A stretch of DNA of 64,000 nt from Propionibacteriaceae bacterium (GTDB lineage Bacteria; Actinomycetota; Actinomycetes; Propionibacteriales; Propionibacteriaceae), in the NCBI GenBank assembly GCA_050996715.1, contig JBPCRP010000025.1, forward strand, positions 8,032-72,031, in the 5' to 3' direction. Position 1 is the stretch's first letter, and every line of letters begins with the position of its first letter. Position numbers and translations under genes: made by a program. This document shows positions 12,618 through 51,627 of the stretch, piece after piece. The notes below the pieces were generated by a model. That model was not told the DNA's origin. It worked only from the letters and a program-made list of their open reading frames with translations, and searched no databases.

Positions 12618-12674
12618 CCACCAGCCAGCTTCTGCCGCATCCTGTCGGCGTGTCGGACAGCAACTGACTGGTGG
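12618..12674 (+). repeat. intergenic hairpin repeat, family 2 (degenerate copy)
   Basis: CCACCAGCCAG-CTTCTGCCG-CATCCTGTCGGCGTGT-CGGACAGCAA-CTGACTGGTGG. Lies in the divergent ADH/DUF427 region. Confidence 0.7.
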
Positions 12675-12728
12675 CGGTCGCGGTGCGCGGGCGGTGACGT
12701 CGGGGCCTGGCGGTTCGGCGGCAAGGCG

Positions 12729-13508
12729 GTGTTCACTGAAAGCGTGCGAACCGAGGCGAGTGAGCGGTGGGTGCGGGGCTGGATGGGGTCCACCGTCGTG
12801 GTGGAGAGCCGGGATCCGTTGTTGTTCTGGGAGGACGACTTCCCCGTTCCGAGCTACGCGTTCCGAGCCGAAGACGTCAGGACCGAGCTGTTCACCCCGA
12901 CTACGGCGCTGCCCCCCGCACAGCCCTGGTTCTTCCTGCCGCACAGCGAGGTGAAGCGCTGGTACGACCTCGAGGCCGACGGCCGAGTGGTCGAGCACGC
13001 CGCCTGGGAGCTCGCCGACGCGGCCGTAGCCGGGCGGATCGTGGTCAGCTGGCAACCTGGCCTGCTCGACCGGTGGACCGAGGAGGACGCGGAGGTCGCC
13101 AGCCACCCGCAGGACCCGCACCACCGCGTCGACGCCCTGCCGAGCAGTCGGCACGTGGTCGTGTCGGTGGGCGGAGCGGTCCTGGCCGACAGCCGCCATC
13201 CGGTCGTGCTGTTCGAGACCGGGCTGCCGACCCGCTTCTATCTGCCGACGGGCGACGTCGACCTGAGCCGACTGGAGACCAGCGAGAACGCGAGTCACTG
13301 CCCCTACAAGGGGATCGCCGACCGCTACTGGAGCCTGCCGGACGTACCGAACCTCGCCTGGGGTTACACCCGGCCGACCCCGGCCGTCGACGGGATCGCC
13401 GGCCGGATCTGCTTCTACAACGAGCTGGTCGACCTCACCGTCGACGGGGTGGAGCTCCCCCGCGCGGTCTCCCCGTTCTCCGAGACGAAGCACCGCCCCG
13501 GATCCTGA
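12729..13508 (+). CDS. DUF427 domain-containing protein (two DUF427-like halves)
   Basis: The tail of ORF 11736..13508 carries HCPYKGIADRYW (DUF427 signature) and an N-terminal half RWVRGWMGSTVVVESRDPLLFWED. Start is uncertain: GTG 12729 or ATG near 12783. Confidence 0.65.
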   Translation: MFTESVRTEASERWVRGWMGSTVVVESRDPLLFWEDDFPVPSYAFRAEDVRTELFTPTTALPPAQPWFFLPHSEVKRWYDLEADGRVVEHAAWELADAAVAGRIVVSWQPGLLDRWTEEDAEVASHPQDPHHRVDALPSSRHVVVSVGGAVLADSRHPVVLFETGLPTRFYLPTGDVDLSRLETSENASHCPYKGIADRYWSLPDVPNLAWGYTRPTPAVDGIAGRICFYNELVDLTVDGVELPRAVSPFSETKHRPGS

Positions 13509-13575
13509 CGCCGACCAGTCAGTTCCTGCCCGACACGCCGACAGAACGCGGCAGAACCTGACTGGTCGGGGTCAG
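13506..13575 (-). repeat. intergenic hairpin repeat, family 2
   Basis: TGACGCCGACCAGTCAG...CTGACTGGTCGGGGTCA. The terminal TGA and TCA are the stop codons of the two convergent genes. The core CGACACGCCG is the reverse complement of CGGCGTGTCG. Confidence 0.85.
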
Positions 13576-15098
13576 GCGGTGCGGCGGAGCCGGCGTACGG
13601 CGGGGATCCGGGCCGACATCGGCACCGTCCAGAGCTCGTGGCCGGAACGCCCCCAGCCCGCCAGCAGCTGGTTCGCGGCCAGAAAGCCGGTGGTCGTGGC
13701 CCGCTCCATCAAGGCGACCGGGAAGTCGCAGCGGATGCCGTCGCCGGCCAGCACCAGCCGGGGGTCGGGGGTCGACACCTCGGGTCGGGAAGCCCAGGGC
13801 TCGGTCCCCACCAGCGGACAGTCGTCACGGACCAACCACTGCTCGGCGACGGTCTGCGCGGCGGCCGTCTCGGGGTAGATCCGGGTCAGCTGGGTGAGCA
13901 GCTCGGCCCGGACGACGTCGGGTTCGGCGGTCATCGCGTACGCGTGCAGCTCGACGACCGAGCCGTCGTGCGCGGCCGCCCACCGGGCCGCGCCGGCCTC
14001 GAACCGCTCCAGCACGGTGACGTTGTCCAGGGGGCCGAAGCCGCTCGTCCCGAGGAAGGCGAGCCGGTCGGCGTCCACCGGGCGATCCAGCCACAGCCGC
14101 AGCACGCCGAACGGCGGGGCGTCCTGGGTGACGGCGATGCCCTCGCGCCAGCCGGGGGTGCCCAAGGTCTCGGCCCGTCGGACCAGTGCCCGGGTGGTCC
14201 GGAGGTCGGTGGCCAGCACCACCCCGTCGGCGGTGAGTTCTTCGCCGGCCACGGTGACGCTCATCCCCGACGCCGAGGCGGCGACCGCGAGGGCCGGCGT
14301 CCCCGTGCGGATCTCGACGCCGAGGTGACGCAGGTAGGCCCCGAGCGGCGCCCAGAGCGCGGTGTCGTAGTCGTCGGTGGGCACGTCGAAGAGCAGACCC
14401 TCGGCCGAGCCCATGAAGTAGCTGTGGAACATCGCCACCAGCTCCCCGGCCGAGAACTCGCGCGGGTCGGCGAAGAAGCTGCGAGCGAACACCTCCAGTG
14501 CCAGGTGCCGGGCGGTGTCGGGGAAGTTGAGCCGGTCGAGGAACTCCGCCGCGCTCACCCCGTCGTACGCGCTCAGGGTGGCCGGGAAGTCCACGTCGAG
14601 CAGACCCAGCGCCGCGTCGATGTCGACGTGCCGCAGGTCACGCAGCCGGAAGCTGGGACTGGCCAGCACGAACGCGGCCACTCCCCACGGCGGGGTCCTG
14701 GGGATCGCAGCGAACGAGTCCTGAGGCCCGTCGGCGAGCCGCAGCGGATAGTCCGCGATCGCGACGAGCCGCTCGAGCCCGGGGTCGGCCCGGCGGAGCA
14801 GGCTGCGCAGGTTGTAGTACTGCCGGAAGAACGCATGGAATCCGCGACTCATGGTGGCCGGGTCGTCCGCGACGTCGACCGGCCAGGCCCGGACCCGACC
14901 GCCGAGCTCCGCCTCGGCCTCGAGCAGGGTGACGGCAATCCCCCGCTCGGCCAGGCCGGTGGCGGCGGCCAGACCGGCGATCCCACCGCCCACCACGACC
15001 ACCCGCGGCCGTTCGGGACCGGAGCCGCGCGGGGTCGGCGGCAGGTGCCGAACGGCCAGCCGGTCGCGGCCGGGGATCCAGGCGCGTGCAGGAGTCAC
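13572..15098 (-). CDS. FAD-dependent oxidoreductase (amine oxidase / carotenoid desaturase superfamily; possibly CrtU/CrtD-like)
   Basis: VVVVGGGIAGLAAATGLAERGIAVTLLEAEAELGGRV dinucleotide fold, 508 aa. GTG start lies 1 nt after the upstream methyltransferase stop. The carotenoid role is inferred from context only. Confidence 0.75.
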   Translation of the reverse strand: MTPARAWIPGRDRLAVRHLPPTPRGSGPERPRVVVVGGGIAGLAAATGLAERGIAVTLLEAEAELGGRVRAWPVDVADDPATMSRGFHAFFRQYYNLRSLLRRADPGLERLVAIADYPLRLADGPQDSFAAIPRTPPWGVAAFVLASPSFRLRDLRHVDIDAALGLLDVDFPATLSAYDGVSAAEFLDRLNFPDTARHLALEVFARSFFADPREFSAGELVAMFHSYFMGSAEGLLFDVPTDDYDTALWAPLGAYLRHLGVEIRTGTPALAVAASASGMSVTVAGEELTADGVVLATDLRTTRALVRRAETLGTPGWREGIAVTQDAPPFGVLRLWLDRPVDADRLAFLGTSGFGPLDNVTVLERFEAGAARWAAAHDGSVVELHAYAMTAEPDVVRAELLTQLTRIYPETAAAQTVAEQWLVRDDCPLVGTEPWASRPEVSTPDPRLVLAGDGIRCDFPVALMERATTTGFLAANQLLAGWGRSGHELWTVPMSARIPAVRRLRRTA

Positions 15099-15099
15099 C

Positions 15100-15843
15100 T
15101 CAGCGCGGCTTGCGGGCGGCGAAGGTGTGCAGGATGCCGCGCTGCCAGCCCGGCACGGTGCGGACGCGGACGTCGACGAAGCCCACCCGCTGCATCCGGG
15201 CCATGAAGATCTCGGTCGAGTCGAAGTCCATCACGCTGCGCCACAGGTAGCGGTAGAGCCGGATGTGCAGGGAGGTCAGCCAGGCCAGCGGGATCACCGC
15301 GAGCCAGCAGACCAGCGACCAGACGAACTGGTGGCGCGGGCGGCCGGCGACCGAGTACTCCTGGACGACCAAGGTGCCGCCGGGAGCCAGCAGGTCGTAC
15401 GCCGCGGCCAGCACCTCGTCGCGCGCGGTCACGTTGCGGAACAGGTAGGCGGCGAAGATCCCGTCGACCGGCGCCGCGAGACCCCAGCCGTCGCGCGAGC
15501 TGGATAGCTCCTCGGCGCGTCCGGTCACGAAACGCACCCCACGGCGCCACCGCTTCTGCCGGGCCTGGGTGAGCATGCCGGCCGACGCGTCCACCCCGAC
15601 CAGGTCGATGCCGTCGGGCGCCGAGACCGCTTCGCCCAGCTGGGAGAGGATCGCCCGGGTCGAGGCGCCGGAGCCGCAGCCGAGGTCGACCAGGCGTAAC
15701 GGACGGCCGCCCCGCTCCGCGCCCCACTCGGCCATGTCGGCGGCCAGGGTGTCGGCGGCCGAGCGCAGGTGCCGGTGGTAGCCGGGGTTGAGCGCCACCA
15801 TCAGGTCGTAGCGCCCCGCGGCGGCGTCGAACGCCCCGGGCAC
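15100..15843 (-). CDS. class I SAM-dependent methyltransferase (possibly CrtT-like)
   Basis: LVDLGCGSGAST motif I, 247 aa, tightly coupled to the downstream FAD oxidoreductase. Confidence 0.75.
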   Translation of the reverse strand: MPGAFDAAAGRYDLMVALNPGYHRHLRSAADTLAADMAEWGAERGGRPLRLVDLGCGSGASTRAILSQLGEAVSAPDGIDLVGVDASAGMLTQARQKRWRRGVRFVTGRAEELSSSRDGWGLAAPVDGIFAAYLFRNVTARDEVLAAAYDLLAPGGTLVVQEYSVAGRPRHQFVWSLVCWLAVIPLAWLTSLHIRLYRYLWRSVMDFDSTEIFMARMQRVGFVDVRVRTVPGWQRGILHTFAARKPR

Positions 15844-16007
15844 CTCCTCGACGCTGGTGATCGGGGGCGACGCCGGGCTGGTCGGCCGGGTCTGCGTACG
15901 GGTCGGGGCGTACTCGGACCGGTCGATGACACACCTGCTTCGGAACTCGCGGGACGGAAGGCCACAGTGATCCTAACGACCGGCCGCGACTGCACCATGA
16001 TGGGCGG

Positions 16008-16697
16008 ATGCGCGTCGTCGGGGTGATCAGGTCCGGGGCCGGGGTCGCGACCCCGGTGGTGGCTGCCGAGCTGCCCCACGGAGTCGACCCGACCCGGTTG
16101 CTGTGGGAGCGGGGGTACGCCTCGCCCGAGCCGGTCGACGCCGTCCGAGACGCGGCGGGCGAGCTCGTGCTGACCGTACGCGTGACCACGCCGGCCGGAC
16201 CCGAGCCCGAGGTGTGCGACGTCCGCGTTGACGCCGGGCTGACGCTGGCGGCCGAGGAGACACCGGAGATGCGGCAACGCGTGGCGGCGTACGCCGTGGT
16301 GGTGTCGGAGCGGGGCCTGCTCGCCACGGAGTTCTCCGCGCGGACGGCCGCCCCGGGAGGGTGGGGACTGCCGGGTGGCGGCGTCGACCCGGGTGAGGAA
16401 CCGGTGGACGCGGTCCGACGCGAGGTGCACGAGGAGACCGCCCAGCACGTGGTGGTGGGGGCGTTGTTGCAGGTGCAGAGCTCGCACTGGGTCGGCCGGG
16501 CACCCCAGGGCACCGTCGAGGACTTCCACGCCGTCCGGTTGATCTACCGCGCCGAGTGCGCCCACCCCGGCGACCCGGAGGTGCTGGACGTCGACGGCAC
16601 CACCGCCTCAGCCCGCTGGGTACCCCGGGAGCTGATCGCTACGTTGGACTGGACCTCCGGCTGGCGGACCCTGCTCGACGCGTGGCTGACCCCCTGA
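16008..16697 (+). CDS. NUDIX hydrolase
   Basis: Nudix box GGWGLPGGGVDPGEEPVDAVRREVHEETAQ. Confidence 0.85.
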   Translation: MRVVGVIRSGAGVATPVVAAELPHGVDPTRLLWERGYASPEPVDAVRDAAGELVLTVRVTTPAGPEPEVCDVRVDAGLTLAAEETPEMRQRVAAYAVVVSERGLLATEFSARTAAPGGWGLPGGGVDPGEEPVDAVRREVHEETAQHVVVGALLQVQSSHWVGRAPQGTVEDFHAVRLIYRAECAHPGDPEVLDVDGTTASARWVPRELIATLDWTSGWRTLLDAWLTP

Positions 16698-16787
16698 CCT
16701 GCTGACCTGCTGACCTGCTGACCTGCTGACCTGCTGACCTGCTGACCTGCTGACCTGCTGACTGCTGACCTGCTGACTGCTGACCCG
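16695..16787 (+). repeat. 8-bp microsatellite (TGACCTGC)x8 followed by 7/8-bp variants
   Basis: Eight perfect TGACCTGC units from 16695 (the first TGA is the Nudix stop), then TGACTGC, TGACCTGC, TGACTGC and TGACCCGC. Confidence 0.95.
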
Positions 16788-16845
16788 CGGTCCGCCGGAA
16801 CCCGTCGGACCACTGACTCATCCGAACCACCGAGGAGCCACCATC

Positions 16846-17487: not shown

Positions 17488-17495
17488 CGGGCTCA

Positions 17496-17586
17496 GAGGA
17501 AACCAAGTTAACGTGGTGTCCACTCACTGTGCATGGCAGATCTGCCGTGTAGGGCGAGAGGAAACCACGTTAACTTGGTTTCCCAG
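17496..17586. repeat. nested palindromic element (family 4) between convergent genes
   Basis: A perfect 20-bp inverted repeat, GGAAACCAAGTTAACGTGGT (17498-17517) / ACCACGTTAACTTGGTTTCC (17564-17583), encloses the perfect palindrome GGCAGATCTGCC (17535-17546), which is followed by GTGT. Confidence 0.9.
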
Positions 17587-17591
17587 CCCCC

Positions 17592-18962
17592 TCAGTCGAT
17601 GTCGCCGAGCAGGTCCTGGCGGGTGAGGACGCCGACGGGTCGGCCGTCGTCGAGCACGAGCAGGGCGTCGGTCTCCACGAGGGCACTGACCGCGGCGGCC
17701 ACCGGCTCGGAGGCGCCCAGGCTCGGCAACGGCGGTTCCATCACAGTCTCGACGGCGTCGGCCGGGCGTACGGTCCCGGCGAAGAGCGCGCCCAGCAGAC
17801 CCCGTTCGCTGACCGACCCGGCCACCTCGGCCGCCATCACCGGCGGCTCGGCGCGGACGACCGGCACCTGCGAGACGCCGTACTCGCGCAGGATGGCCAC
17901 GGCCTCGGCGATGGTCTCGTTGGGATGGGTGTGCACCAGGGTGGGCAGCGCCCCGGACTTCTCGCGGAGCACGTCCCCAACCGCCCGGACCGACGCGTCG
18001 GCGCGGTGCGCGAACCCGTAGCGGGTCAGCCACTCGTCGTTGAACACCTTGGTCAGGTACCCGCGTCCGGAGTCGGGCAGCAGCACCACGACCACCGCGT
18101 CGGGGTCGTCGAGCTCGGCCGCCAGGCGGACGGCAGCCGCGGTGGCCATCCCGCACGATCCGCCGACCAGCAGCGCCTCCTCGCGGGCCAGACGCCGGGT
18201 CATCGCGAACGAGTCCCCGTCGGAGACCTCGATGACGCGGTCGCAGACGGTCCGGTCGTACGTCGCGGGCCAGAAGTCCTCCCCCACGCCCTCGACCAGG
18301 TAGGGCCGGCCGGTACCACCGGAGTAAACCGAGCCGGTGGGGTCCGCACCGACGACCTGGACCCGGCCGTCGGAGACCTCTTTGAGGTAGCGACCGACCC
18401 CGGAGATGGTTCCGCCGGTGCCGATGCCCGCGACGAAGCGGGTGGTCTTCCCGTCGGTCTGGGCCCAGATCTCGGGACCGGTGGTCTCGTAGTGGCTGCG
18501 CGGGTTGTGCGGGTTGGAGTACTGGTCGGGCTTCCACGCGCCGTCGATCTCGCGGACCAACCGGTCGGAGACCGAGTAGTAGGAGTCCGGATGCTCGGGT
18601 TCGACCGCGGTCGGGCAGACGACCACCCGCGCACCGTACGCCTTGAGCACGTTGCGCTTGTCCTCACTGACCTTGTCGGGGCAGACGAAAACACAGTGGT
18701 AGCCCTTGGACTGGGCGACGATCGCCAAGCCGACGCCCGTGTTGCCGCTGGTCGGCTCCACGATGGTGCCGCCGGGCTTGAGCAGACCCTCGGCCTCGGC
18801 CGCCTCGATCATCCGGACCGCGATCCGGTCCTTCACCGAGCCGCCCGGGTTGAGGTACTCCACCTTGGCGAGCACCAGCGGCTGTGCCCCCTGTGTCACC
18901 CGGGACAGCCGGACGAGTGGGGTGTTGCCGACGAGGTCGATGAGTGAGGTCACATACTGCAC
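17592..18962 (-). CDS. cbs: cystathionine beta-synthase (PLP domain plus tandem CBS domains)
   Basis: LIDLVGNTPLVRL, LNPGGSVKDRIA and GTGGTISG PLP-enzyme motifs, plus a C-terminal CBS pair. 456 aa. Confidence 0.9.
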   Translation of the reverse strand: MQYVTSLIDLVGNTPLVRLSRVTQGAQPLVLAKVEYLNPGGSVKDRIAVRMIEAAEAEGLLKPGGTIVEPTSGNTGVGLAIVAQSKGYHCVFVCPDKVSEDKRNVLKAYGARVVVCPTAVEPEHPDSYYSVSDRLVREIDGAWKPDQYSNPHNPRSHYETTGPEIWAQTDGKTTRFVAGIGTGGTISGVGRYLKEVSDGRVQVVGADPTGSVYSGGTGRPYLVEGVGEDFWPATYDRTVCDRVIEVSDGDSFAMTRRLAREEALLVGGSCGMATAAAVRLAAELDDPDAVVVVLLPDSGRGYLTKVFNDEWLTRYGFAHRADASVRAVGDVLREKSGALPTLVHTHPNETIAEAVAILREYGVSQVPVVRAEPPVMAAEVAGSVSERGLLGALFAGTVRPADAVETVMEPPLPSLGASEPVAAAVSALVETDALLVLDDGRPVGVLTRQDLLGDID

Positions 18963-19004
18963 GACGGTGAGCCTAGTGGCGCCCCCCGCCAGTTACCCAC
19001 GGGT

Positions 19005-19060
19005 AAGTGGTCACTCTTCCGGGGGCCTACGGCGTGTCCCGGGTCGTCTGTGACCACTTT
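19005..19060 (+). repeat. intergenic hairpin repeat, family 1, copy A
   Basis: AAGTGGTCAC...GGCGTGTCCC...GTGACCACTT. About 80% identical to the copies at 37567 and 45029. Confidence 0.85.
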
Positions 19061-19063
19061 CCC

Positions 19064-19128
19064 GAGGTGGGGGGATGGGTTGGGGGGATGGGCGGGGGCG
19101 GATGGGGGGATGGGTGGGGTGGGGCCGC
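19064..19128 (+). repeat. G-tract array (GGGGGGATGGG-type units) flanking family 1 copy A
   Basis: At least 8 runs of G3-6 on the + strand; C-rich on the transcribed minus strand just after the BI-1 stop. Confidence 0.85.
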
Positions 19129-19131
19129 GGG

Positions 19132-21854: not shown

Positions 21855-22509
21855 AGCCTAAAGAACCAGCAGGGCCTGGGGAGCGGTCGCGGCTAACTGG
21901 TCGATCCCTTCCGTCGACGGAAAGGATCGACCACCTCGGGCACGCAGATCCGTCGAGGTCGACCTTCCGGGGGTGGATCGCGTGGGCGCCGAGCACCAGG
22001 TCGATGAAGAGCTGGCCCTGGCAGTGGTCGATCTCGTGCTGCAGGGCGCGGGCCTCGAAGGCGTCGGTGAGGATCTCCACCGTCGTACCGGAACCGGGGA
22101 GCTGGCCCGTCACCCGGACCCGTGAGGCGCGTTTCACGTCACCGGTCAGGTCGGGGACCGACATGCAGCCCTCACGGGCCTTCTCGTTGCGGGAGGAGTC
22201 GGCGAGCACGGCGTTGACCAGCACGATCAGACCGTGGCTCGTGCGGGCCTTGGGGTGTGCGCTGACGTCGACGCAGAACGCCTGGGCCGAGACCCCGACC
22301 TGGGGCGCGGCGAGACCGACGCAGCCCGGCGAGACCCGCATGGTGGCGACGAGGTCGGCGCACAGCGTGAGGGTCGCAGGATCGGTCGGGTCGAGCAGAT
22401 CGCCCACCCGGCCGAGCACCGGGTCCGGGGCCTGGAGCACGGGTCGGACCGCACCCTCGGGCAGGTTGATGTCCGCGAGCCCCGCGCGGTCGGGGAGGGG
22501 CAGGCTCAC
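21646..22509 (-). CDS. def: peptide deformylase with anomalous C-terminal extension (true end uncertain)
   Basis: CVGLAAPQVG, EGCMSVP and QHEIDH motifs. The ORF continues about 125 aa past HEIDH with collapsed GC3 and overlaps the next gene by 209 nt. Confidence 0.7.
   Translation of the reverse strand: MSLPLPDRAGLADINLPEGAVRPVLQAPDPVLGRVGDLLDPTDPATLTLCADLVATMRVSPGCVGLAAPQVGVSAQAFCVDVSAHPKARTSHGLIVLVNAVLADSSRNEKAREGCMSVPDLTGDVKRASRVRVTGQLPGSGTTVEILTDAFEARALQHEIDHCQGQLFIDLVLGAHAIHPRKVDLDGSACPRWSILSVDGRDRPVSRDRSPGPAGSLGFGGANRVAVDRAATAARARPGLGARPARTAAGGRLGDRNGAHHRLPRSASIEVRHHLRRRGAGRPRTAR
21899..21932. other. 34-bp near-perfect palindrome inside the def tail
   Basis: GGTCGATCCCTTCCGTC|GACGGAAAGGATCGACC; 16 of 17 arm positions pair. 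Confidence 0.85.
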
Positions 22510-24038: not shown

Positions 24039-24640
24039 AAATGGCTCCCAGAAGGTCGGGGCTCGCCGTTGAGACAGGGCTTGTTCCAGTACGGGCCGAT
24101 CAGCGTGACGGCTTCGTCACCGAACGGGTTCACTCCCGGGCCCGCCGCGAGGGCGTGCGCCGCGAGGGCGTGCAGACATTTGACCCGATCAGGCATCCCG
24201 CCCGCACTCACCCCCGAGATCTCGGGCACGTCGTCGAGTCGGGACCGGTCGGTCAGGTACGCCTGATGAGCCGCAGCGTAGCGCTGAGCCAGTTCCGGGT
24301 CGTCGGGGAGGCGGGCCGCCATCTGGGTCATCACCCCGTTCGACTCCAACGTGGAGCACGCCGAGGACGCCCGCGGGCAGGTGAGGTAGTAGGTGGTCGG
24401 GAACGGCGTGCCGTCCGCCAACCGGGGGGCGGTGGCCACCACGTCGGGCTGCCCGCAGGGACAGCGGTGCGCGATCCGGGCGAGGTCGCGGGGGCTGCGA
24501 CCGAGTTGTACGGTGCCCGCGGCGACGTCGGCTGCGGTGACCGCGTCCGCCTGGCTCGGGGTGTCGGCCGGGGCGGTGCTGGACGGCGGGGCGGTGCTGG
24601 ACGGCGGGGCGGCGCCGGACGGCGGGGCGGGGCTGGTCAT
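24035..24640 (-). CDS. DUF501 domain-containing protein
   Basis: CPCGQP...TTYYLTCP...GGMPDRVKCLH pattern and position next to ppx, as in mycobacterial Rv1025/Rv1026. Start set at ATG 24640. Confidence 0.7.
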   Translation of the reverse strand: MTSPAPPSGAAPPSSTAPPSSTAPADTPSQADAVTAADVAAGTVQLGRSPRDLARIAHRCPCGQPDVVATAPRLADGTPFPTTYYLTCPRASSACSTLESNGVMTQMAARLPDDPELAQRYAAAHQAYLTDRSRLDDVPEISGVSAGGMPDRVKCLHALAAHALAAGPGVNPFGDEAVTLIGPYWNKPCLNGEPRPSGSHL

Positions 24641-24667
24641 CACCCCCAGTCTTGCAGCCGGCTCGGG

Positions 24668-24694
24668 ACTCCCCAAACTCCCCAAACTCCCCAT
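24668..24694 (+). repeat. 9-bp tandem repeat ACTCCCCAA x3
   Basis: ACTCCCCAA ACTCCCCAA ACTCCCCAT, directly abutting family 3 copy 1. Confidence 0.9.
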
Positions 24695-24750
24695 TTTGCG
24701 CACAGTGGTCCACCGAAACCGGTTGCTGGGGGCCATTGTGCGCAAAATGG
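24691..24750. repeat. intergenic hairpin repeat, family 3, copy 1
   Basis: CCATTTTGCGCACAGTGG...CCATTGTGCGCAAAATGG. Lies in the divergent DUF501/rbsK region. Confidence 0.85.
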
Positions 24751-25747: not shown

Positions 25748-25815
25748 CGCCGACCAGTCACTTCCCGCCGGAACCCCGGCGTGTCGGCGGGAAAAGCTGA
25801 CTGGTCGCGGGGTCA
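25745..25815 (+). repeat. intergenic hairpin repeat, family 2
   Basis: TGACGCCGACCAGTCA-CTTCCCGCCG-GAACCCCGGCGTGT-CGGCGGGAAAAG-CTGACTGGTCGCGGGGTCA. Its ends are the rbsK and ftsB-like stop codons. Confidence 0.9.
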
Positions 25816-31067: not shown

Positions 31068-31131
31068 CCGAGCAGTCAGAACCTGTCGCGACACGCGGAG
31101 AAACGCGGGAGGACGTGCCTGGTCGGCGGGG

Positions 31132-34740: not shown

Positions 34741-34828
34741 GGCCCAAAAGGACGACTCGATCGTGGAGGGGCTCCGGCGCTGAGCGTGAACGGCAGCGGC
34801 CCAACGGATCGAACCGTCCTTTTGGGCC
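34741..34828 (+). repeat. intergenic inverted-repeat element, family 5, copy 1
   Basis: GGCCCAAAAGGACG...GCTGAGCGTGAACGGC...CGTCCTTTTGGGCC. Confidence 0.85.
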
Positions 34829-35529: not shown

Positions 35530-35667
35530 CGTGCTCGCCCACGCCGTCGAGGCTGTGACACGCGTTCAGAACCCGAAGCGTGGCCCGACCTCGACCGCGT
35601 CACCCCAGGACGACGGCCCGACCGTGGCTCGGGATCCGAGCGGGCCGCCACAGAATTCGAGCTGGGC

Positions 35668-35982
35668 TCAGGAGCCGATCCGCCCGACGGGGCCGACACC
35701 GACCGAGAACGGCCGGATGCTCATCGCCGGGGTCCCGGCATTGCGCTCCGGGTTGAACGGCGTCACCGCGTCACCCCAGCCGGCCTTGGCCGCGTACGTG
35801 GGCGAGTTGACCAGAACCGGGGTGATCCTGGTGCACCGGCGCCGTGACGGGTGGTGGTCGGCGTCCTTGGTCGGCGTCCTTGGTCGGCGTCCTTGGTCGA
35901 CTTCTGATGCACGACCGCGCCGGCGCACTGTCCCCGGGAACCGCTGACTATCCAGGGCAGATGCTCCGTGGAAAGTGACCAT
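35668..35982 (-). other. possible small CDS or gene remnant; only the 3' half looks coding
   Basis: High GC3 from ITPVLVNSPTYAAKAGWGDAVTPFNPERNAG... to the stop. The 5' part has low GC3 and contains the 13-bp repeats. An antisense frame shares third positions, so the call is weak. Confidence 0.3.
35856..35894. repeat. 13-bp tandem repeat GGTCGGCGTCCTT x3
   Basis: Three perfect units plus the partial GGTCG. The unit length is not a multiple of 3. Confidence 0.95.
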
Positions 35983-35985
35983 TTC

Positions 35986-35999
35986 CCACGTATACGTGG
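35986..35999. promoter_or_regulatory. perfect 14-bp palindrome CCACGTATACGTGG
   Basis: Read directly from the sequence. It sits 4 nt upstream (minus sense) of ATG 35982 and downstream of the pth stop. Confidence 0.5.
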
Positions 36000-36048
36000 C
36001 AACCCGACAACGGCAACAGGACGTGCGCCGCTGCCGAGCGGTGCGACC

Positions 36049-37566: not shown

Positions 37567-37625
37567 AAGTGGTCACTTTTGGCGGCCGTACCGGCGTGGC
37601 GTGGGTCGACTGTGACCACTTTCGC
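37567..37625 (+). repeat. intergenic hairpin repeat, family 1, copy B
   Basis: AAGTGGTCACTTTTGGCGGCCGTACCGGCGTGGCGTGGGTCGACTGTGACCACTTTCGC, followed by G-tracts at 37628-37672. Confidence 0.85.
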
Positions 37626-37681
37626 GAGGGGGTGGGGGCCGGCGGGGGTGGGGGCCGGCGGGTGGTGGGGGTACGAGTGGG

Positions 37682-38659: not shown

Positions 38660-40233
38660 GACTGCTCGCTCTCGATCTGTCGATCATGGTGCTGCTGATC
38701 ATGCCGGGCCCGTTCGTGCTGGGCCTGCTCCGGTCGGGCCTGCTCCTGTCGGGCCTGCTCCTGTCGGGCCTGCTCCTGCTGGGCCTGCTCGGCCGCCGCG
38801 GCGGTCTTGGTGCCAGCTCGCTTGCGGGCGACCCAACCGCGGACGTTGCGTTGGCTGCCGCGGGCCACGGCCAGCTCGCCGGCGCCGACGGGCATGGTGA
38901 TGGTCGAGCCGGCCGCGACGTACGCGCCGTCGGCCACCTCGCACGGCGCCACCAGGGTCGAGTCGCTGCCGACGAAGGAGTAGCGGCCCACGTGGGTCGA
39001 GCTCTTGGTGACGCCGTCGTAGTTGGCGAAGATCACCCCGGCGCCGATATTGGCACCCTCGTCGATCACCGCGTCACCGGCGTAGGTGAGGTGTGGGACT
39101 TTCGCCCCCGGTCCGATCCGGGCGTTCTTGGTCTCCACGAAGGTGCCGATCTTGCCCTGGGCCCCCACCGTTGTGCCCGGCCGGAGGGAGGCGTACGGCC
39201 CGACGCTGGCCCCCGCGCCGATCACGGCGAGCACCGCCTGGGTCCGGACGACCGACGCGCCCTCCCCCACCTCGGTGTCGACCAGGGTGACCTCGGGGCC
39301 GATCGTCGCGCCGGCCGCGATCGAGGTCGCACCCTCCAGGAACGTCCCGGGGCGCAGGGTGACGTCGGTGCCGAGGTCGACGGTGCGGTGGATCCAGGTG
39401 GTGCTCGGGTCCTCGATGCTCACCCCGGCTCGCATCCACCCCGCGCAGATTCGCCGGTTCAGCTCCCCCGCCACGGCCTGCAGCTGCACCCGGTCGTTGA
39501 CACCCTCGATCTGCCAGTGGTCCGGGGTGACGTGGGCGTGGACGACGAGCCCTTGCGACCGGGCGTATTCGACGACGTCGGTGAGGTAGAGCTCGCCGCT
39601 CGGGCCGTTCGGGGCCAGCCGGGTGAGAGCCTCGCTCAGCAGGTCGGCGTCGAAGGCGATCACGCCGGAGTTGATCTCCCGGCCGGCCCGCTGCACCGGG
39701 TCCGCGTCGCGGTGCTCCACGATGCCCTGGATCGCCCCGGTGGCGTCCCGGACGATCCGGCCGTACCCCGTCGGGTCGACCACCTCGGCGCTCAGGACCG
39801 TGACCGCGGCCCCGGCCTCTCGGTGGGCGTTCAGGAGCGCGACCACGGTGTCCCCCGTCAGCAGCGGTACGTCGCCGAGGGTGACCAGCACGTCGCCGCT
39901 GAGCTCGCCCAGCTCCTCGAGCGCGCACCGGACGGCGTACCCAGTGCCGTATGCCGCATCCCCCTGGGTGACCGGCTGCACGTGCGGCGCGATCTCGCTC
40001 AGGTGCGCCACGACCTGCTCGCGCTGGTGGCCGACGACCACGGCGATCCGGGTCGACTCGACCGCGGCCGCAGCGTCGATCGCGTGGCTGAGCAGCGAGT
40101 GCCCGGCGATCTTGTGCAGCACCTTGGCCCGGGTCGACCGCATTCGGGTGCCCTCCCCGGCGGCCAGCACGATCACGGCGGCGACACCACGACCCGGTTC
40201 AGTCGGCGCGGCGGACTCGGGCGTGGACGACAC
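38656..40233 (-). CDS. glmU: bifunctional UDP-N-acetylglucosamine pyrophosphorylase / glucosamine-1-phosphate N-acetyltransferase with repeat-containing C-terminal tail
   Basis: VLAAGEGTRMRS, left-handed beta-helix hexapeptide repeats, then a Q/E/A/R tail. An ATGA overlap joins it to prs. Confidence 0.9.
   Translation of the reverse strand: MSSTPESAAPTEPGRGVAAVIVLAAGEGTRMRSTRAKVLHKIAGHSLLSHAIDAAAAVESTRIAVVVGHQREQVVAHLSEIAPHVQPVTQGDAAYGTGYAVRCALEELGELSGDVLVTLGDVPLLTGDTVVALLNAHREAGAAVTVLSAEVVDPTGYGRIVRDATGAIQGIVEHRDADPVQRAGREINSGVIAFDADLLSEALTRLAPNGPSGELYLTDVVEYARSQGLVVHAHVTPDHWQIEGVNDRVQLQAVAGELNRRICAGWMRAGVSIEDPSTTWIHRTVDLGTDVTLRPGTFLEGATSIAAGATIGPEVTLVDTEVGEGASVVRTQAVLAVIGAGASVGPYASLRPGTTVGAQGKIGTFVETKNARIGPGAKVPHLTYAGDAVIDEGANIGAGVIFANYDGVTKSSTHVGRYSFVGSDSTLVAPCEVADGAYVAAGSTITMPVGAGELAVARGSQRNVRGWVARKRAGTKTAAAAEQAQQEQARQEQARQEQARPEQAQHERARHDQQHHDRQIESEQS
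38721..38795. repeat. 15-bp tandem repeat (about 5 units) encoding (QEQAR)n in the GlmU tail
   Basis: GGGCCTGCTCC(G/T)GTC-type units on the + strand. In frame (5 aa per unit). Confidence 0.9.
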
Positions 40234-41092: not shown

Positions 41093-41101
41093 GTCGTTTC
41101 G

Positions 41102-41137
41102 CCGACTGATTCCTCTCGTCTGCGAGGAATCAATCGG
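41102..41137. terminator. hairpin between convergent genes (candidate bidirectional terminator)
   Basis: CCGACTGATTCCTC-TCGTCTGC-GAGGAATCAATCGG; 13 of 14 positions pair. No U-tract. Confidence 0.45.
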
Positions 41138-41145
41138 TGGGGCGC

Positions 41146-45015: not shown

Positions 45016-45028
45016 CCCCTTCCGCCGG

Positions 45029-45091
45029 GCGAAAGTGGTCACTTTTGGGGCCCACCGCGGCGTGTCCCGAGTCGTTGGTGACCACTTTCGC
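45029..45091 (+). repeat. intergenic hairpin repeat, family 1, copy C
   Basis: GCGAAAGTGGTCAC...GCGGCGTGTCCCGAGTCG...GTGACCACTTTCGC (14-bp perfect arms), then GGGGTGGGGGG. Confidence 0.9.
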
Positions 45092-45133
45092 AAGGGGTGG
45101 GGGGCGCGAGCGGCGTGACCTAGACTCCGCGAG

Positions 45134-45631: not shown

Positions 45632-45698
45632 CCGCAGCTCCCCGGGTGCGGCGGCTGGGTCGGCGGCTCAGTCAGCGGCTGGGTCGGGTGTCGGCGGC

Positions 45699-46640: not shown

Positions 46641-46711
46641 TCGCAGCAGGCCGGGGTGACGTTCGACCGTGTGCGCACGGACGGCAGGCTAGCCAGTGCG
46701 GCCGGTGGAGT

Positions 46712-46799
46712 GGACCAAAAGGACGGCTCAACCCATCTCGTCCGGGCCGTTCACGCTCAGCACCACGTGGTGCTCGGCAACGAACCGGCCTTTTGGTCC
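46712..46799 (-). repeat. intergenic inverted-repeat element, family 5, copy 2 (inverted relative to copy 1)
   Basis: GGACCAAAAGGACGG...GCCGTTCACGCTCAGC...CCGGCCTTTTGGTCC. The centre is the reverse complement of that in copy 1. Confidence 0.85.
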
Positions 46800-46845
46800 A
46801 GATCGTGACGGGGACCGTCGTGTGCCCCGCGACGCGCGGGACCAC

Positions 46846-47796: not shown

Positions 47797-47855
47797 CGCC
47801 CGAGGCTAGACGGGCCGTTCGCGGCCGCCCCGGACGGGGGACGGATTGCGCCCGG

Positions 47856-48701: not shown

Positions 48702-48738
48702 CGCCGACCCCGCCCCGGTACGGCCGGGGGTCCGGAGA

Positions 48739-49902
48739 TCAGCCGATGCCGAGCTTGGCCGTGCACGCCGGCCACGCACCCCAGCCCTGGGCCGCCTGGA
48801 CGCGCTTGGCCACGGCGATCTGCGCCTGGCGGCTGGCGTTGTTCGGCATCCCGGAGCCGCCGTACCCGTGCCAGGTCGACAAGGTGAACTGCAGGCCCCC
48901 GTAGAAGCCGTTGCCGGTGTTGATCGACCAGTTGCCGCCGGACTCGCACTGGGCGATCTTGTCCCACACGCTGCCCGAGGCCACGCTCGGGCTGCCGCCG
49001 GAGCTCTTCGTCCGGCTGGAGGAGCTGGAGGACGACCTTGAGGAGGAGGTGGACTTCTTCGGGGCCGCCGGGCGCACCTTGGTGCCGACCAGCACGATCT
49101 TGGTCCGGGGCTCCGTGGTGATCGTGGAAGCGCCCTTCTTGCTGCTCTTGAGCTTCCCGTCGTAACGGGTCTCGACGTAGGTCGTGGTCCGGGTTCCGTT
49201 GCGGCCCGTGGTGTCGACCTTGGTCGTGCCCTTGCTCAGCTTGCTGGTGTTCTTGCGCACCACGTCGAAGTCGACCGCGGTCTTCTTGGTGACCTTCTTC
49301 TTGTCCACCTTGACGAAGGTGACCCGCGACCCGTCCTTGATCACGGTGGCCCGCTTGGGGCTGAGCAGGTCGTCACCGTCGGGGGTGATCTTGGCGGCAG
49401 CGAGCGCGTCGGCAACGGTGGCGCCGGTGGTCTGCACCTTGGTGGTCTTGCCGCCGGCCTTGACGCTGACCGTCTTGAGGGTGTTCACGTCGATGGCCAG
49501 GCCCTGGCGACCGATCGGCGCCGAGCGGCTGGTCGAGAGCTTGGCCCCCTCGGACTGCAGACCCACGGCGGCCAGGGCGCTGTTCACGTCGCGCGCGGTG
49601 GTCCAGAACGACTTCGTCGCACCGTCTACGTCGAGGGTCACCTGACGGCCGTACTGCACCGAGATGAGCTGCCCGTCGGTCACGGCCGCGTCGGCCGCGG
49701 GCGCCACCAGGTCGTGCTCACCGACGGTGATGCCCTGCTGGCTGAGGACGTCGGCGACGCTCCCCGACAGGGTGCTCACCTGGGTCTTCTGGCCGTCGAC
49801 GGCCACGGTGACGTCCTTGTGGACTGCGGAGTAGCCGAAGGCTCCACCGGCGACGGCGAGGGCCGCCACACCGGCGATGGCTGCGGGAATGACTTTGCGC
49901 AC
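48739..49902 (-). CDS. rpfB: resuscitation-promoting factor RpfB (DUF348 x3, G5, Rpf transglycosylase-like domain)
   Basis: C-terminal [28 protein letters not shown]-terminal TM helix, repeated DUF348-like modules and a Ser-rich linker. Confidence 0.9.
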
Positions 49903-50044
49903 AGTTCTCCAGAGGGGCGCGCCGCAGACGGCGACGACCCCGGGTTGAGGACATATGGAGCGCGGGCCGATCCTTGACCGAGGCCCGCGAGATCACAAAA
50001 GCATAACGGCGGAGTGTCGCTCTGCCCAATTGCGCAAACGGCGG

Positions 50045-50656
50045 CTATAACCAGTGACCGCGGTGGATCAGTTCGGCCGCGGGACGGCGTGGCCGTCGGG
50101 CCGGCGAACCGGGCGTACCGCTGGAGCCCACCGGACGTCCCACGGCAACCACGCCGACGCTCTGCCGGTCGCTCGGCACCCCGAACGCGGCGCGGACGGC
50201 GTCCTGCCGGTCCACCGGCACCCCGAAGAAGCAGCCGCCGAGCTCCGCGTCCACGGCGCTGAGCAGCAGGGCGAGCGACGCCATCCCTGCGTCGACCCAC
50301 CAGTACGGCGCCGACCAGCGGTCGGGGTCGCGGTCGGTCCAGCCCTTGTCGGGCTCGGCGTACCGGTCGAGGTAGGCCTGCTCACTGGTCCAGACCAGGA
50401 TCAGCAGCGGCGCCGTCTGCATCCCGTCCAGCCAGCGGCTCGTCGCGCGCGCGGCGCCCGGGGCGGTGGCGGACCAGAAGCGGTCGCGGTCCTCGGGGCG
50501 GTCGAGCACCAGGAACGCCACGCCCTGGGTGAACCCGGCCGACGGCGTCCGGCGGGCGGCGGCGAGCAGGCTCTCGATGATCTCCGGCGGTACGGCGACG
50601 TCCGGGTCGAAGCGGCGCACCATCCGCCGCCGGGCGAGGACGTCAGCGAGCTCCAT
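50045..50656 (-). CDS. nitroreductase family protein
   Basis: RRMVRRFDPD...RTPSAGFTQG pattern. 203 aa. The last sense codon is TTA. Confidence 0.75.
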   Translation of the reverse strand: MELADVLARRRMVRRFDPDVAVPPEIIESLLAAARRTPSAGFTQGVAFLVLDRPEDRDRFWSATAPGAARATSRWLDGMQTAPLLILVWTSEQAYLDRYAEPDKGWTDRDPDRWSAPYWWVDAGMASLALLLSAVDAELGGCFFGVPVDRQDAVRAAFGVPSDRQSVGVVAVGRPVGSSGTPGSPARRPRRPAAELIHRGHWL

Positions 50657-51548
50657 CGGTCGCCTCGGTCGGGCACTGCTCCCAGGCCCCGCCGAACGCG
50701 GCGTCGGTGTTGGCGGCGATCGCCGTACACAGGTCCGCGAGGTCGTCCCCGCGGACCTCGGCCATCGCCCGGACCGTGTGCGGGACCAGGTAGGAGGCGT
50801 TCGGCCGGCCGCGGAACGGCGTCGGGGTCAGGTAGGGCGCGTCGGTCTCGACCAGAATCTGGTTCCGCGGGGCGATGGCCAGCGCGTCTCGGAGGGGCTG
50901 GGCGTTGCCGAAGGTGACGGTGCCGGCGAAGGACAGGTAGGCCCCGCGGTCCAGGCACGCCCGGGCGAAGTCGGCGTCGCCGGAGAAGCAGTGCATGACC
51001 ACCCGCTCCGGCACCCCTTCCGCGTCGAGCACGTCGAGGATGTCGGCGTGGGCGTCGCGGTCGTGGATGACCAGCGTGCGGCCGTACGCGTGGGCGAGGG
51101 CGATGTGCGCGGCGAACGACTCCCGCTGCCGAGCGATTCCGGCCTCGTCGCGGGTCCGGAACCGGTCCATCCCGGTCTCACCGACGGCCCGGACATGGGG
51201 GTGGGCGGCGAGCGCCTCGATCGCGGCGAGGGCGGCCGGGAGGTCGGTACCCGGCTGCGCGGCGTCATTCGGATGCACCGCCACGGCGGCCACCACGCTC
51301 GGGAACCGCTCCGCCGCCGCCACCGCCCAGCGGGAGCTCGCCACATCGCACCCGACCTGGACGATCCGGGTGACGCCGACCGCTGCCGCCTCGGCGATCG
51401 CGAGCTCGGGGGGCAGATCGGTCCGGCCGTCGGCCACATCGAGGTGGCAGTGGTTGTCCACCACCGCCACGGGAAGGGGCTCGGGACGGGGCGGCCGCTC
51501 CAGGTTCCGCCGCTGCCCCTGCTCGCTCACCTCGGCCCGCCGATCCAC
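50643..51548 (-). CDS. tatD: TatD family metal-dependent hydrolase
   Basis: VDNHCHLD and further His/Asp metal-ligand motifs. Position upstream of rpfB, as Rv1008 is. Confidence 0.85.
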   Translation of the reverse strand: MDRRAEVSEQGQRRNLERPPRPEPLPVAVVDNHCHLDVADGRTDLPPELAIAEAAAVGVTRIVQVGCDVASSRWAVAAAERFPSVVAAVAVHPNDAAQPGTDLPAALAAIEALAAHPHVRAVGETGMDRFRTRDEAGIARQRESFAAHIALAHAYGRTLVIHDRDAHADILDVLDAEGVPERVVMHCFSGDADFARACLDRGAYLSFAGTVTFGNAQPLRDALAIAPRNQILVETDAPYLTPTPFRGRPNASYLVPHTVRAMAEVRGDDLADLCTAIAANTDAAFGGAWEQCPTEATDGAR

Positions 51549-51563
51549 CCGGCCACCCTAAGC

Positions 51564-51627
51564 CGCCATTTTGTGCACAATGACCCCGACCAGGCGGGCC
51601 GATGGGGTCATTGTGTTCAAAATGGCG
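51564..51627. repeat. intergenic hairpin repeat, family 3, copy 2
   Basis: CGCCATTTTGTGCACAATGACCCC-GACCAGGCGGGCCGAT-GGGGTCATTGTGTTCAAAATGGCG (24-bp arms, 1 mismatch). Confidence 0.9.

Follow-up and report, generated by a model that had tools for sequence, protein, structure and literature searches.

A 64,000-nt stretch of a Propionibacteriaceae MAG with 72% G+C DNA, referred to here as the window, carries 13 long hairpins in its non-coding gaps. This raises the question of whether they are dispersed DNA elements of the REP/MITE type or RNA terminators that evolved independently of one another. A first-pass annotation had favored the former and had treated the hairpins as variants of a common scaffold.

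Thirteen intergenic hairpins in the window

Each of the 13 annotated hairpins was found in its place. Twelve correspond to the multi-copy families F1 (three copies), F2 (four), F3 (two), and F5 (two) plus the single-copy F4; the thirteenth (~41095-41140) is related to none of families F1-F5. In window coordinates, the elements and the G-rich tails beside two of them are:

12617..12675, plus strand: F2a, 59 nt; core on the plus strand; between divergent ADH and DUF427 genes
13511..13569, minus strand: F2b, 59 nt; arms CCGACCAGTCAG/CTGACTGGTCGG; core on the minus strand
17498..17583, unstranded: F4, 86-nt hairpin, one copy in the window; convergent stops 10 and 8 nt off
19005..19059, plus strand: F1a, 55 nt; arms AAGTGGTCAC/GTGACCACTT; GGCGTGTC core on the plus strand
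19060..19124, plus strand: G-rich tail of F1a; tandem repeat TGGGGGGATGGGC, 2.9 copies, at 19068-19106
24691..24750, unstranded: F3a, near-perfect hairpin of 60 nt; arm CCATTTTGCGCACAGTGG; divergent DUF501 and pfkB genes on either side
25750..25808, plus strand: F2c, 59 nt; flanked by the stops of the convergent genes pfkB and divIC
31068..31126, minus strand: F2d, degenerate 59-nt copy; minus-strand core variant GCGTGTC; 5 nt after the mfd stop
34741..34828, plus strand: F5a, hairpin of 88 nt; arms GGCCCAAAAGGACG; mfd and a methyltransferase gene, divergent, on either side
37567..37621, plus strand: F1b, 55 nt; core variant GGCGTGGCGTG; between prs and the L25 gene
37622..37671, plus strand: G-rich tail of F1b (TCGCGAGGGGGTGGGGG); tandem repeat GGGGGTGGGGGCCGGC, 2.7 copies, at 37628-37671
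41095..41140, unstranded: lone hairpin; between the convergent stops of TetR and AAA-ATPase genes; no second copy
45033..45087, plus strand: F1c, 55 nt; GGCGTGTC core; 17 nt after the stop of an MFS gene, sense to transcription
46712..46799, minus strand: F5b, 88 nt; interior inverted relative to F5a; 46 nt after the ispE stop
51566..51625, unstranded: F3b, 60-nt hairpin; 4 nt after the stop of an rsmI-like gene

The positional claims of the annotation hold. All 13 elements lie in gaps of a codon-usage gene map, 10 are 3' of at least one gene, and three (F2a, F3a, and F5a) are between divergent genes. Window copies 3' of genes often follow the stop codon by 2-17 nt; overall, the commonest spacing is 2-20 nt, and convergent gene pairs are frequent; F2b, for instance, occupies the spacer of two convergent stop codons, 2 nt from either, and its pairing spans 13490-13590. 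The genes that flank the elements have core housekeeping roles (mfd, prs, L25, and eno). As also claimed, F1 occurs in both orientations relative to transcription: F1c is in sense orientation, and F1b as well as F1a, which is flanked by two minus-strand genes, are antisense. F2a and F2b, which are 89% identical, are inverted with respect to each other. A C-rich tandem repeat at 24668-24693 adjoins F3a.

Folded as single strands, 10 of the 13 elements are far beyond dinucleotide shuffles, with z from -3.4 to -10.3, the latter for F4, in which either arm is a 24-nt quasi-palindrome, GGAAACCAnGTTAACnTGGTkTCC. Against the same kind of shuffles, F1c, F2a, and F2d, whose interiors are degenerate, score between -1.1 and -1.8. 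Hairpin-plus-U-tract terminators were not above chance in 2 x 20 kb (1 and 7 sites vs 3.8 and 4.1 in shuffles) and, as regards L-shaped terminators, the scan placed no site on a full element.

The families are distinct, and two share an apex motif

Similarity within families is beyond chance (alignment z of 8-21) and is not significant between families (z ≤ 3.1). Family lengths are unequal (55, 59, 60, 86, and 88 nt), the families are not mutually alignable, and an F1 covariance model, with which F1a scored 46.8 bits, did not detect F2-F5. The view that the five families represent covariation on a common scaffold is therefore not supported, since the core that was said to unite them joins F1 and F2 only; true covariation is found inside F1 across genomes and not among families.

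That core had been claimed for F1, F2, F4, and F5. For the first two the claim stands: GGCGTGTC occurs six times in the window on both strands, five of these occurrences are within F1 or F2 copies, near the apex, and the remaining two F1/F2 copies have close variants of it. For F4 and F5 the likeness is at chance level, because their "cores" GCCGTGTAGG and GAGCGTGAAC shrink to [GC]CGTG, for which DNA of this composition has an expectation of 0.58 per 87 nt. We also considered homology between F1 and F2, which we rejected since their global alignment is insignificant and F2 is missed by the F1 model. Another candidate, the flanking GGGGTCAG, is no element motif: it is the stop-codon context CTGACCC, which occurs with or without an element and is found at 11 of the ~55 TGA stops in the window.

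Discrete gain or loss of elements between related species

In relatives ~85% identical in DNA, F2c, F3a, and F5a are absent from otherwise collinear sites, which shows that such species differ by the gain or loss of whole elements. The comparison of F2c with the related locus L121 reveals a clean 58-nt indel with a boundary ambiguity of ≤3 nt, the empty spacer being 7 nt between two convergent stops, an insertion that recombination would leave unexplained. F3a is also absent in L121 and, since the corresponding gap in the more distant L110 is just 61 nt, was probably gained. F5a is absent at the orthologous L106 site. The junctions of F2c and F5a have a 2-3-nt ambiguity (CG/CGC), which is compatible with a very short target duplication.

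Other copies are shared. Orthologs of F1a and F4 are present in L109, where F4 retains both its units in direct instead of inverted orientation, and F4 is absent in L110. The start of an F2d ortholog is visible at a contig end in L106. No F1 copy was found in the gap of L107 or L108 orthologous to that of F1b, and no G-rich tract of the F1a type was seen beside the L109 ortholog, whose contig starts 23 nt from the arm. Contig ends in related MAGs fall on or close to elements, which fits with assembly breaks caused by repeats. An F4-like design is seen in M. panaciterrae, at L108 6351-6444. In relatives with 78-79% identity, orthologous gaps contain no exceptional hairpins (z ~0), which argues that there is no conserved need for a hairpin at these sites.

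F1 is an old family whose pairing is maintained by compensatory change

F1 arms match 103 stretches, almost all of them actinobacterial, where chance would give ~6 by an estimate of ours that uses pattern length and the size of the collection. The carriers are Propionibacteriales and a few other actinobacterial groups and include the cultured genera Microlunatus (with M. flavus and M. spumicola), Nocardioides, Brevibacterium, and Cellulomonas; F1 is an old family common to these groups. Arms are conserved and interiors variable among genomes, as in MITE families. All 104 matches checked (103 loci) are intergenic, in gene contexts that are convergent (20), tandem (35), or divergent (7) for the 62 that could be classified, and usually 10-60 nt after a stop where gene calls are good. 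In contrast to this spread of F1, among the genomes sampled F2-F5 turned up in no lineage other than that of the window, and a scan of JGI metagenomes for F2 arms gave ~10 matches, one or two of them F2-like, which is essentially chance.

Pairing in F1 is maintained by compensatory change. In the inner stem, 79% of cells are paired vs 37-47% when the partner is slid, and the covariation score of 0.276 compares with 0.13 in shuffles, none of 500 of which reaches it. Compensatory change is also found at orthologous loci (L032/L058 and L018/L039). The spacer between the half-sites, which are 35 bp apart, covaries, an indication that the pairing is intrastrand.

The orientation of the F1 loop relative to transcription is random (25 sense, 23 antisense), and mismatches in transcript sense include 65 of the G-U type vs 56 of the A-C type, an absence of G-U excess that leaves no RNA-strand signature. 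In one 2.8-Mb contig, six of six copies have one chromosomal orientation regardless of that of the neighboring genes, the argument for constant orientation being based on 6+3 copies; a replication-strand test by local GC skew gave 11 vs 5. Around 100 copies, there is no excess of 2-8-nt direct repeats at offsets 0-12.

Near-identical copies in the MFD09368 genome point to a recent burst of F1. Other copies share their locus in at least five species, e.g., just upstream of the GNAT gene beside rplJ, and their behavior is that of stable and possibly functional sites, not of active mobile DNA. A composite arrangement in L069 (a 201-nt direct repeat with F1 in each copy and a 2-kb segment between) was discarded as a candidate element, as the segment contains a GSDH-family gene and an ORF that matches nothing in Pfam, and the repeat has the look of a spacer that was duplicated.

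Search for an enzyme, a parent element, or a known family

No transposase of any kind was found beside an element. A tblastn search for IS200 TnpA/RAYT in the window and ~1 Mb of related loci found nothing, a weak negative since the probe sequences were approximate; a weak match in L029 looks like a short-chain dehydrogenase. The DUF427 gene between the inverted F2a and F2b was considered as a mobilizing gene and dismissed, as it lacks the signature of a nuclease or transposase. In ~0.8 Mb of F1 loci, F1 arms were not found around any longer element or ORF. The plasmid collection yielded a single match, weak and partial (E 0.4, 31 nt), and no feature is annotated beneath it. No regulator gene is consistently adjacent to the elements.

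The statement that the sequences belong to no named repeat family is borne out by our searches. At gathering score Rfam recognizes two tRNAs only, and even at E ≤ 5 all that the elements match is miRNA hairpins, spuriously and with scores well under the threshold. Neither the M. phosphovorus genome paper nor the literature searched by topic and arm sequence gave a description of these repeats. Integron attC sites have RYYYAAC/GTTRRRY ends and occur in cassette arrays near an integron integrase; the arms found here differ from these ends, and there is no integrase among the 30 element-flanking window genes scanned.

Origin of the elements

Taken as a whole, the evidence argues for dispersed REP/MITE-like DNA over independent RNA terminators, as the annotation had proposed, on the basis of 1) near-identical copies at unrelated loci, 2) three copies missing from collinear sites, 3) some 100 occurrences of F1 elsewhere, 4) random loop orientation, and 5) the lack of canonical terminators above chance. 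We consider it probable that the elements are several unrelated 55-90 bp non-coding hairpin repeat families in intergenic spacers, the actinobacterial counterparts of REP/REPIN and MITE elements. Their copies would be made in trans by an enzyme encoded outside the window. Because duplications are absent, the elements rely on hairpins, and there is a hint of constant chromosomal orientation, this enzyme would be of the single-strand HUH/Y1 type (RAYT or IS200-like) rather than a DDE transposase. Elements would insert with no duplication just past stop codons and be transcribed as 3'-UTR hairpins, which, in a genome that has no canonical terminators, probably end transcripts or shield their 3' ends in both directions, so that insertions at gene ends would be tolerated or useful. 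The GGCGTGTC apex of F1 and F2 may be a lineage-specific recognition determinant of the mobilizing enzyme.

A bolder proposal, to which we give only limited credence, is that F1, with F2 as a sister design, is the substrate of an Actinomycetota-specific REP-like system, in which a dedicated factor would recognize an invariant 10-12-bp base and a lineage-specific apex (GGCGTGTCG in the window lineage, GAATCGATCAAG in others). This factor might be a domesticated single-strand DNA enzyme or an RNA-binding factor conserved across Propionibacteriales. If true, such a system would account for cross-family conservation, duplication-free insertion, constant chromosomal orientation, and one apex in two otherwise unrelated families.

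Two alternatives appear unlikely to us. One is that the elements are RNA structures selected by the host, i.e., terminators or 3'-end protecting or processing hairpins, which would resemble each other because of a conserved RNA-binding factor or nuclease and would spread by recombination. This would fit the location just past stops of 10 of the 13 elements in the window and of most F1 copies in other genomes, stems of ~20 bp or more kept by compensatory change even at orthologous loci, the shortage of canonical terminators, and arms of F1 that are conserved across bacterial families. Against it stand the copies in divergent promoter regions (three in the window and 7 of 62 for F1), the absence of a U-tract, an asymmetric loop with no preferred orientation and no G-U excess, relatives whose orthologous spacers suffice with ~7-60 nt and no hairpin, and the clean insertion of F2c. 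The other, just as improbable, is that the elements are classical MITEs, deletion derivatives of an IS with ~20-bp terminal inverted repeats (cGAAAGTGGTCACnnACGACA in F1) to which a DDE transposase acting in trans would bind. Conserved arms around variable interiors, discrete insertions, and the short junction ambiguities would all agree with this; the lack of direct-repeat excess around F1, the absence of a longer element or ORF between the same arms in ~0.8 Mb of F1 loci, and the near-silent plasmid collection speak against it, as does a length of 55-60 bp, below the 70-300 bp given for MITEs (PMC3733652).

That a nucleoid-associated or regulatory protein binds the elements as double-stranded DNA is very improbable, since most are at gene 3' ends rather than promoters, the F1 spacer covaries, and no regulator gene accompanies them, with F4 as the most plausible case: its 24-bp palindromic arms, both retained in direct orientation in L109 and paralleled in M. 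panaciterrae, could equally be protein-binding sites.

If dispersed DNA is the correct reading, the families are an undescribed, yet unsurprising counterpart of REP/MITE elements known from other bacteria; we found no description of such repeats in high-G+C Actinomycetota in Rfam or the literature searched. With an element every 3 kb across 39 kb, such repeats could account for a large share of the scarce intergenic DNA of this genome, and they alter gene 3' ends and spacers. Sites that are filled in one species and empty in a close relative might be used as strain markers. The presence of F1 in cultured genera makes two questions testable, namely how transcripts end without canonical terminators and which enzyme moves palindromes that have no tag.

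Comparison with known systems

REP sequences are defined as imperfect palindromes of 20-40 bp with a stem of 5-13 bp, a loop of 2-20 nt, and a GTAG/CGTC tag (PMC2817692; PMC3116915; PMC3733652). Like the REP/REPIN elements of Proteobacteria, those in the window are short, non-coding, multi-copy palindromes with several families per genome, almost only extragenic and mainly downstream of genes or between convergent ones, which form single-strand hairpins and lack target duplications; REPs, too, are thought to act as RNA 3'-end structures. They differ in length (55-88 nt vs 20-40 nt) and in their stems of 10 to ~35 bp with internal loops, and F1, F3, F4, and F5 have no GTAG/CGTC tag. In three of the four F2 copies the stem is preceded on its 5' side by GACG; this belongs to the stop-codon context TGACG in F2b and F2c, and we rejected membership of F2 among CGTC-tagged REPs. 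The elements are not REP doublets, since their arms, except those of F4, are not themselves hairpins. REP/REPIN elements are mobilized by RAYT (Y1/HUH) transposases, with a RAYT gene that is flanked by the repeats in the same genome, whereas the search with approximate probes found none in the window and ~1 Mb of loci. Tagged REP superfamilies have been reported in eight phyla, Actinobacteria not being mentioned, and REP-like sequences without terminal motifs in M. tuberculosis and D. radiodurans (PMC3733652).

A second comparison is with the untagged stem-loop/TIR families around TIRYT genes, which are also moderately abundant, long inverted-repeat palindromes with no conserved tag, some with self-complementary arms as in F4 (PMC3733652). 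In those families, the arms flank a tyrosine-transposase gene, and none was seen here; the GGGGWSAS of some TIRs matches GGGGTCAG beside F2 and F3, a link that we discarded since it is here the general CTGACCC context of stop codons. Untagged stem-loop sequence families were reportedly the subject of studies by Petrillo et al. in 2006 and Cozzuto et al. in 2008.

With bacterial MITEs (Correia/NEMIS of Neisseria, RUP, ERIC, and Nezha), the elements share terminal inverted repeats, a short non-coding interior, and insertion next to genes. MITEs fold as strong RNA hairpins that can stabilize mRNA or speed its degradation (PMC3733652), and the folding is common to the elements here. The F1 consensus arms are within the 15-30 bp of MITE terminal inverted repeats, and arms measure 12-14 nt in F2, ~20 nt in F3, and 14 nt in F5. 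Unlike MITEs, the elements are smaller, gave no parent insertion sequence in ~0.8 Mb of F1 loci and the plasmid collection, and lack a target-site duplication, as F1 shows no direct-repeat excess and the F2c filled/empty pair allows ≤3 nt.

Finally, U-tract-less "I-shaped" terminators have been proposed for mycobacteria and other high-G+C actinobacteria as individually evolved hairpins unrelated in sequence. The elements resemble them in being G+C-rich hairpins with no U-tract, located just after stops and often common to two convergent genes, but differ in forming multi-copy families with conserved sequence and insertion polymorphism.

Hairpin families in the window

Since plain ORF lists are uninformative at the 72% G+C of the window, we used a gene map based on codon usage, which overlooked one peptide deformylase gene that was identified through synteny. 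Among the genes of the window are core actinobacterial ones such as mfd, the L25 gene, prs, glmU, eno, divIC, ppx, and ispE, along with two tRNAs. Its Mfd, cystathionine beta-synthase, and ribokinase match proteins encoded on a 73.8-kb contig of a Propionibacteriaceae MAG at 100% identity, and its closest relatives by Mfd identity are GCA_019695475.1 at 93%, then Microlunatus and Friedmanniella at 79% or less. On this map, the 13 hairpins of the first-pass annotation were all confirmed at their given coordinates and lie in intergenic gaps. Single-strand folding was far stronger than for shuffled sequences in 10 of the 13 (z from -3.4 to -10.3), and by the same measure the interiors of F1c, F2a, and F2d are decayed. 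Alignment z scores were 8 to 21 within families, with no significant score between them. On the basis of this similarity, within families only, the set is best described as four multicopy families (F1, F2, F3, and F5), F4, which is single in the window, and a unique hairpin at 41.1 kb without a second copy. The earlier idea of one scaffold with arms covarying across five families is not supported since the families do not align with each other. Three elements (F2a, F3a, and F5a) occupy spacers between divergent genes, and the remaining ones lie 3' of a gene, several of them very close to the stop codon.

Start of elements relative to the stop codon
F2b, F2c, F2d, and F3b: 2 to 5 nt past the stop codon
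F4 and the unique hairpin: 8 to 11 nt past the stop codon
F1c: 17 nt past the stop codon

F2a and F2b (12617-13569) are the most alike F2 pair (89%) and are inverted around a single DUF427 gene, an arrangement suggestive of gene conversion or of copying between neighboring sites. The DUF427 gene itself was considered as a mobilizing gene and rejected, as it has no nuclease or transposase signature.

The first-pass annotation also held that F1, F2, F4, and F5 share a core, which stands for only two of these families. Five of the six occurrences of GGCGTGTC in the window (both strands) lie close to the apex of an F1 or F2 copy, the other two F1/F2 copies have close variants, and the same core is found in F1 copies of MFD09368, Microlunatus flavus, and two further loci (L080 and L090). 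Judged from this distribution, the link between F1 and F2 is genuine, although the families are otherwise unalignable. In contrast, the F4 and F5 "cores" come down to [GC]CGTG, of which 0.58 are expected per 87 nt. A second candidate motif, GGGGTCAG, adjoins F2 and F3 and matches GGGGWSAS, the motif of repeats around some tyrosine transposases (PMC3733652). We rejected it because it corresponds to a general stop-codon context: TGA is used at ~55 of 59 readable stops, 11 of which show the extended context CTGACCC with or without an element. When present on both sides, this context produces palindromic-looking flanks between convergent genes.

F1 is widespread and its pairing is maintained

Scanning one genome per species for exact F1 arms (AAGTGGTCAC, 30 to 40 nt, GTGACCACTT) returned 103 stretches, against a chance expectation of ~6 estimated from pattern length and collection size; about as many matches came from unrelated phyla. 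The remaining matches belong to Propionibacteriaceae (including Microlunatus and Friedmanniella) and Nocardioidaceae, with a few in Brevibacterium, Cellulomonas, Gulosibacter, Jiangellaceae, Geodermatophilaceae, and Mycobacteriales MAGs. Individual carriers include Brevibacterium sp. LE-L (CP189759), Nocardioides sp. YIM B13467, the Friedmanniella MAG CBDCLF01, Microlunatus flavus, and M. spumicola. Aligned with each other, the copies give the consensus cGAAAGTGGTCAC-nnACgACA-loop-TGTCGTnn-GTGACCACTTTCg, in which conservation of the 10-nt arms is built in by the search pattern and the neighboring pairs are not so constrained. These neighboring pairs covary, with standard pairing in 79% of cells versus 37 to 47% when the 3' partner is slid, and a covariation score of 0.276 versus 0.13 for shuffles that was reached by none of 500. 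Single pairs alternate among AU, GC, UA, and CG, and orthologous copies show double compensatory changes (e.g., loci L032 and L058).

Every F1 copy lies between genes, which are convergent in 20 cases, tandem in 35, and divergent in 7, and where gene calls are good the distance from a stop codon upstream is usually 10 to 60 nt. A covariance model detected 12 extra copies in 750 kb of flanks and, in the window, only the three known copies. At this density, a genome would contain between tens and about two hundred copies. The loop types GGCGTGTCG, GAATCGATCAAG, and palindromic GGATTTCGGCCGAATCC each occur in many species and loci. At least nine near-identical copies in MFD09368 would be the sign of a recent burst in that genome. 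Part of the family is old and stable since some copies hold a fixed position shared by at least five species. One such copy, in L061 (4363-4437), L024, L062, L015, and L086, is directly upstream of GCTGTGAGGATGGGCCGATGCATCC, conserved in at least five species, which in L061 continues into the beginning of an ORF for a GNAT-like acetyltransferase, divergent from rplJ; this copy is fixed and not a terminator. In another locus, L069, a 201-nt direct repeat (1505-1705 and 3697-3897; 92%) with an F1 hairpin in each copy surrounds a 2-kb segment, which encodes a GSDH-family protein and an ORF without Pfam match, has no transposase, and is inserted between genes for an aldehyde dehydrogenase and a DAO/GCV_T-domain oxidoreductase.

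The pairing constraint is not bound to one transcribed strand

We considered whether the elements might be oriented RNA genes, which the data do not fit. The asymmetric portion of F1 points along the incoming transcript in 25 cases and against it in 23, mismatches in the transcript sense show no G-U excess (65 G-U-type and 56 A-C-type), there are no U-tracts at the elements, and Rfam has nothing for them. These findings show that the F1 pairing constraint is independent of any one transcribed strand, in keeping with either a DNA palindrome or a hairpin working in both directions. Given their position at gene ends and a genome without canonical terminators (not above chance in the 40 kb scanned), the elements would likely serve, secondarily, as 3'-end hairpins that work in both directions.

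Elements are gained or lost between relatives

Three contigs from species with ~85% DNA identity are collinear with the window. At the F2c site, L121 reads CCTCTGA-CGCGGAGTCAG and the window CCTGTGA-[58 nt]-CGCGGGGTCAG. The difference is a clean indel within the 7 nt that separate two stop codons, and its junction is ambiguous by at most 3 nt. F3a is absent from the 55-nt divergent spacer of L121, and since L110, a more distant relative, has just 61 nt in this gap, it is most simply a gain. F5a is absent upstream of mfd in L106. F1a and F4 are present in L109, with pairing-preserving substitutions, and in L110 (88% CBS identity) a 26-nt spacer takes the place of F4 and a different hairpin that of F1a. 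L106 also has F2d, within which its contig stops, 25 nt past the mfd stop. The hairpin is not a conserved requirement at these sites since orthologous spacers in 78 to 79% relatives have ordinary folding energies. In a check for target duplications, no excess of 2- to 8-nt direct repeats was found at any offset around 100 F1 copies.

Contigs of related MAGs end within or ~25 nt from elements (the end of L106 at an F2d-like and the start of L109 at an F1a-like element), which would be expected of repeats that interrupt the assembly of short reads. At the F2d site, gene content or order differs in L121 (11017-11427), where a nucleoside:H+ symporter gene beside a SurA-like gene is found in the place that mfd has in the window.

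Tandem repeats and other palindromes

The window also contains the following repeats.

16685-16785: octamer tandem array of GCTGACCT, 12.9 units, 92% matches
19068-19124: short G-rich tandem repeat adjoining F1a
21895-21934: near-perfect 40-nt palindrome, 3' end of the peptide deformylase gene
24569-24636: 18-nt repeat, 3.8 units, 5' end of a DUF501 gene, missing in L121
24668-24693: C-rich tandem repeat adjoining F3a
35855-35899: perfect 13-nt array, 3.5 units, in the 519-nt gap 35530-36048
37628-37671: short G-rich tandem repeat adjoining F1b
38705-38790: 15/30-nt repeat within the 3' end of glmU

The octamer array begins at the stop codon of gene 16008-16697 and occupies the spacer, so that TGA recurs in every frame. 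The G-runs beside F1a and F1b could form quadruplexes. The tandem-repeat tails of F1a, F1b, and F3a look hypervariable since no G-rich tract adjoins the F1a ortholog of L109 in the 23 nt between its arm and the contig start. At the peptide deformylase palindrome, the window is ~48 nt longer than L121; L121 contains a homolog of the left arm only, the right arm being new, which suggests a local inverted duplication in place rather than a family member. Microlunatus panaciterrae (L108) has its own long palindromes (6351-6444, 14935-15062, and 17757-17873), one 94-nt element consisting of two GTTTCCCWAGTCGACTWGGGAAAC units in a design that resembles F4, as well as repeats of the unit GCCCTTCGACAGGCTCAGGGCGCG.

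Mobility and relation to known repeats

On one contig, the six F1 copies between 0.93 and 2.67 Mb all have their core on the same strand, with neighboring genes in both directions, and the three window copies agree too. A constant chromosomal orientation is thus suggested, albeit by a thin sample (p ~0.03 for six of six). Using approximate IS200 TnpA and RAYT probe sequences, no transposase was found near the elements or in the window and ~1 Mb of loci. A search of ~0.8 Mb of F1 loci found no longer element bounded by the arms. The only match in a plasmid collection was weak and partial, and no annotated feature lies under it. JGI metagenome contigs contain essentially no F2 arms, and F2 to F5 thus appear restricted to the lineage of the window. 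We found no description of these repeats in the literature.

Taken together, the elements fit nonautonomous palindromic repeats of the REP/MITE kind, and the first-pass view of them as dispersed DNA is upheld by discrete gain or loss and by the strand-independent pairing constraint. As for how they move, the lack of duplication on insertion, the need for a hairpin, and a possibly constant strand orientation favor a mechanism in which they would insert by a single-strand HUH-type reaction. Unlike tagged REPs, they have no tag, are too long, and no RAYT was seen in the stretches searched; unlike MITEs, they show no duplication and no parent IS was found. Since they thus depart from the defining features of both, the closest category is the untagged stem-loop families noted for M. 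tuberculosis and D. radiodurans (Di Nocera et al., PMC3733652).
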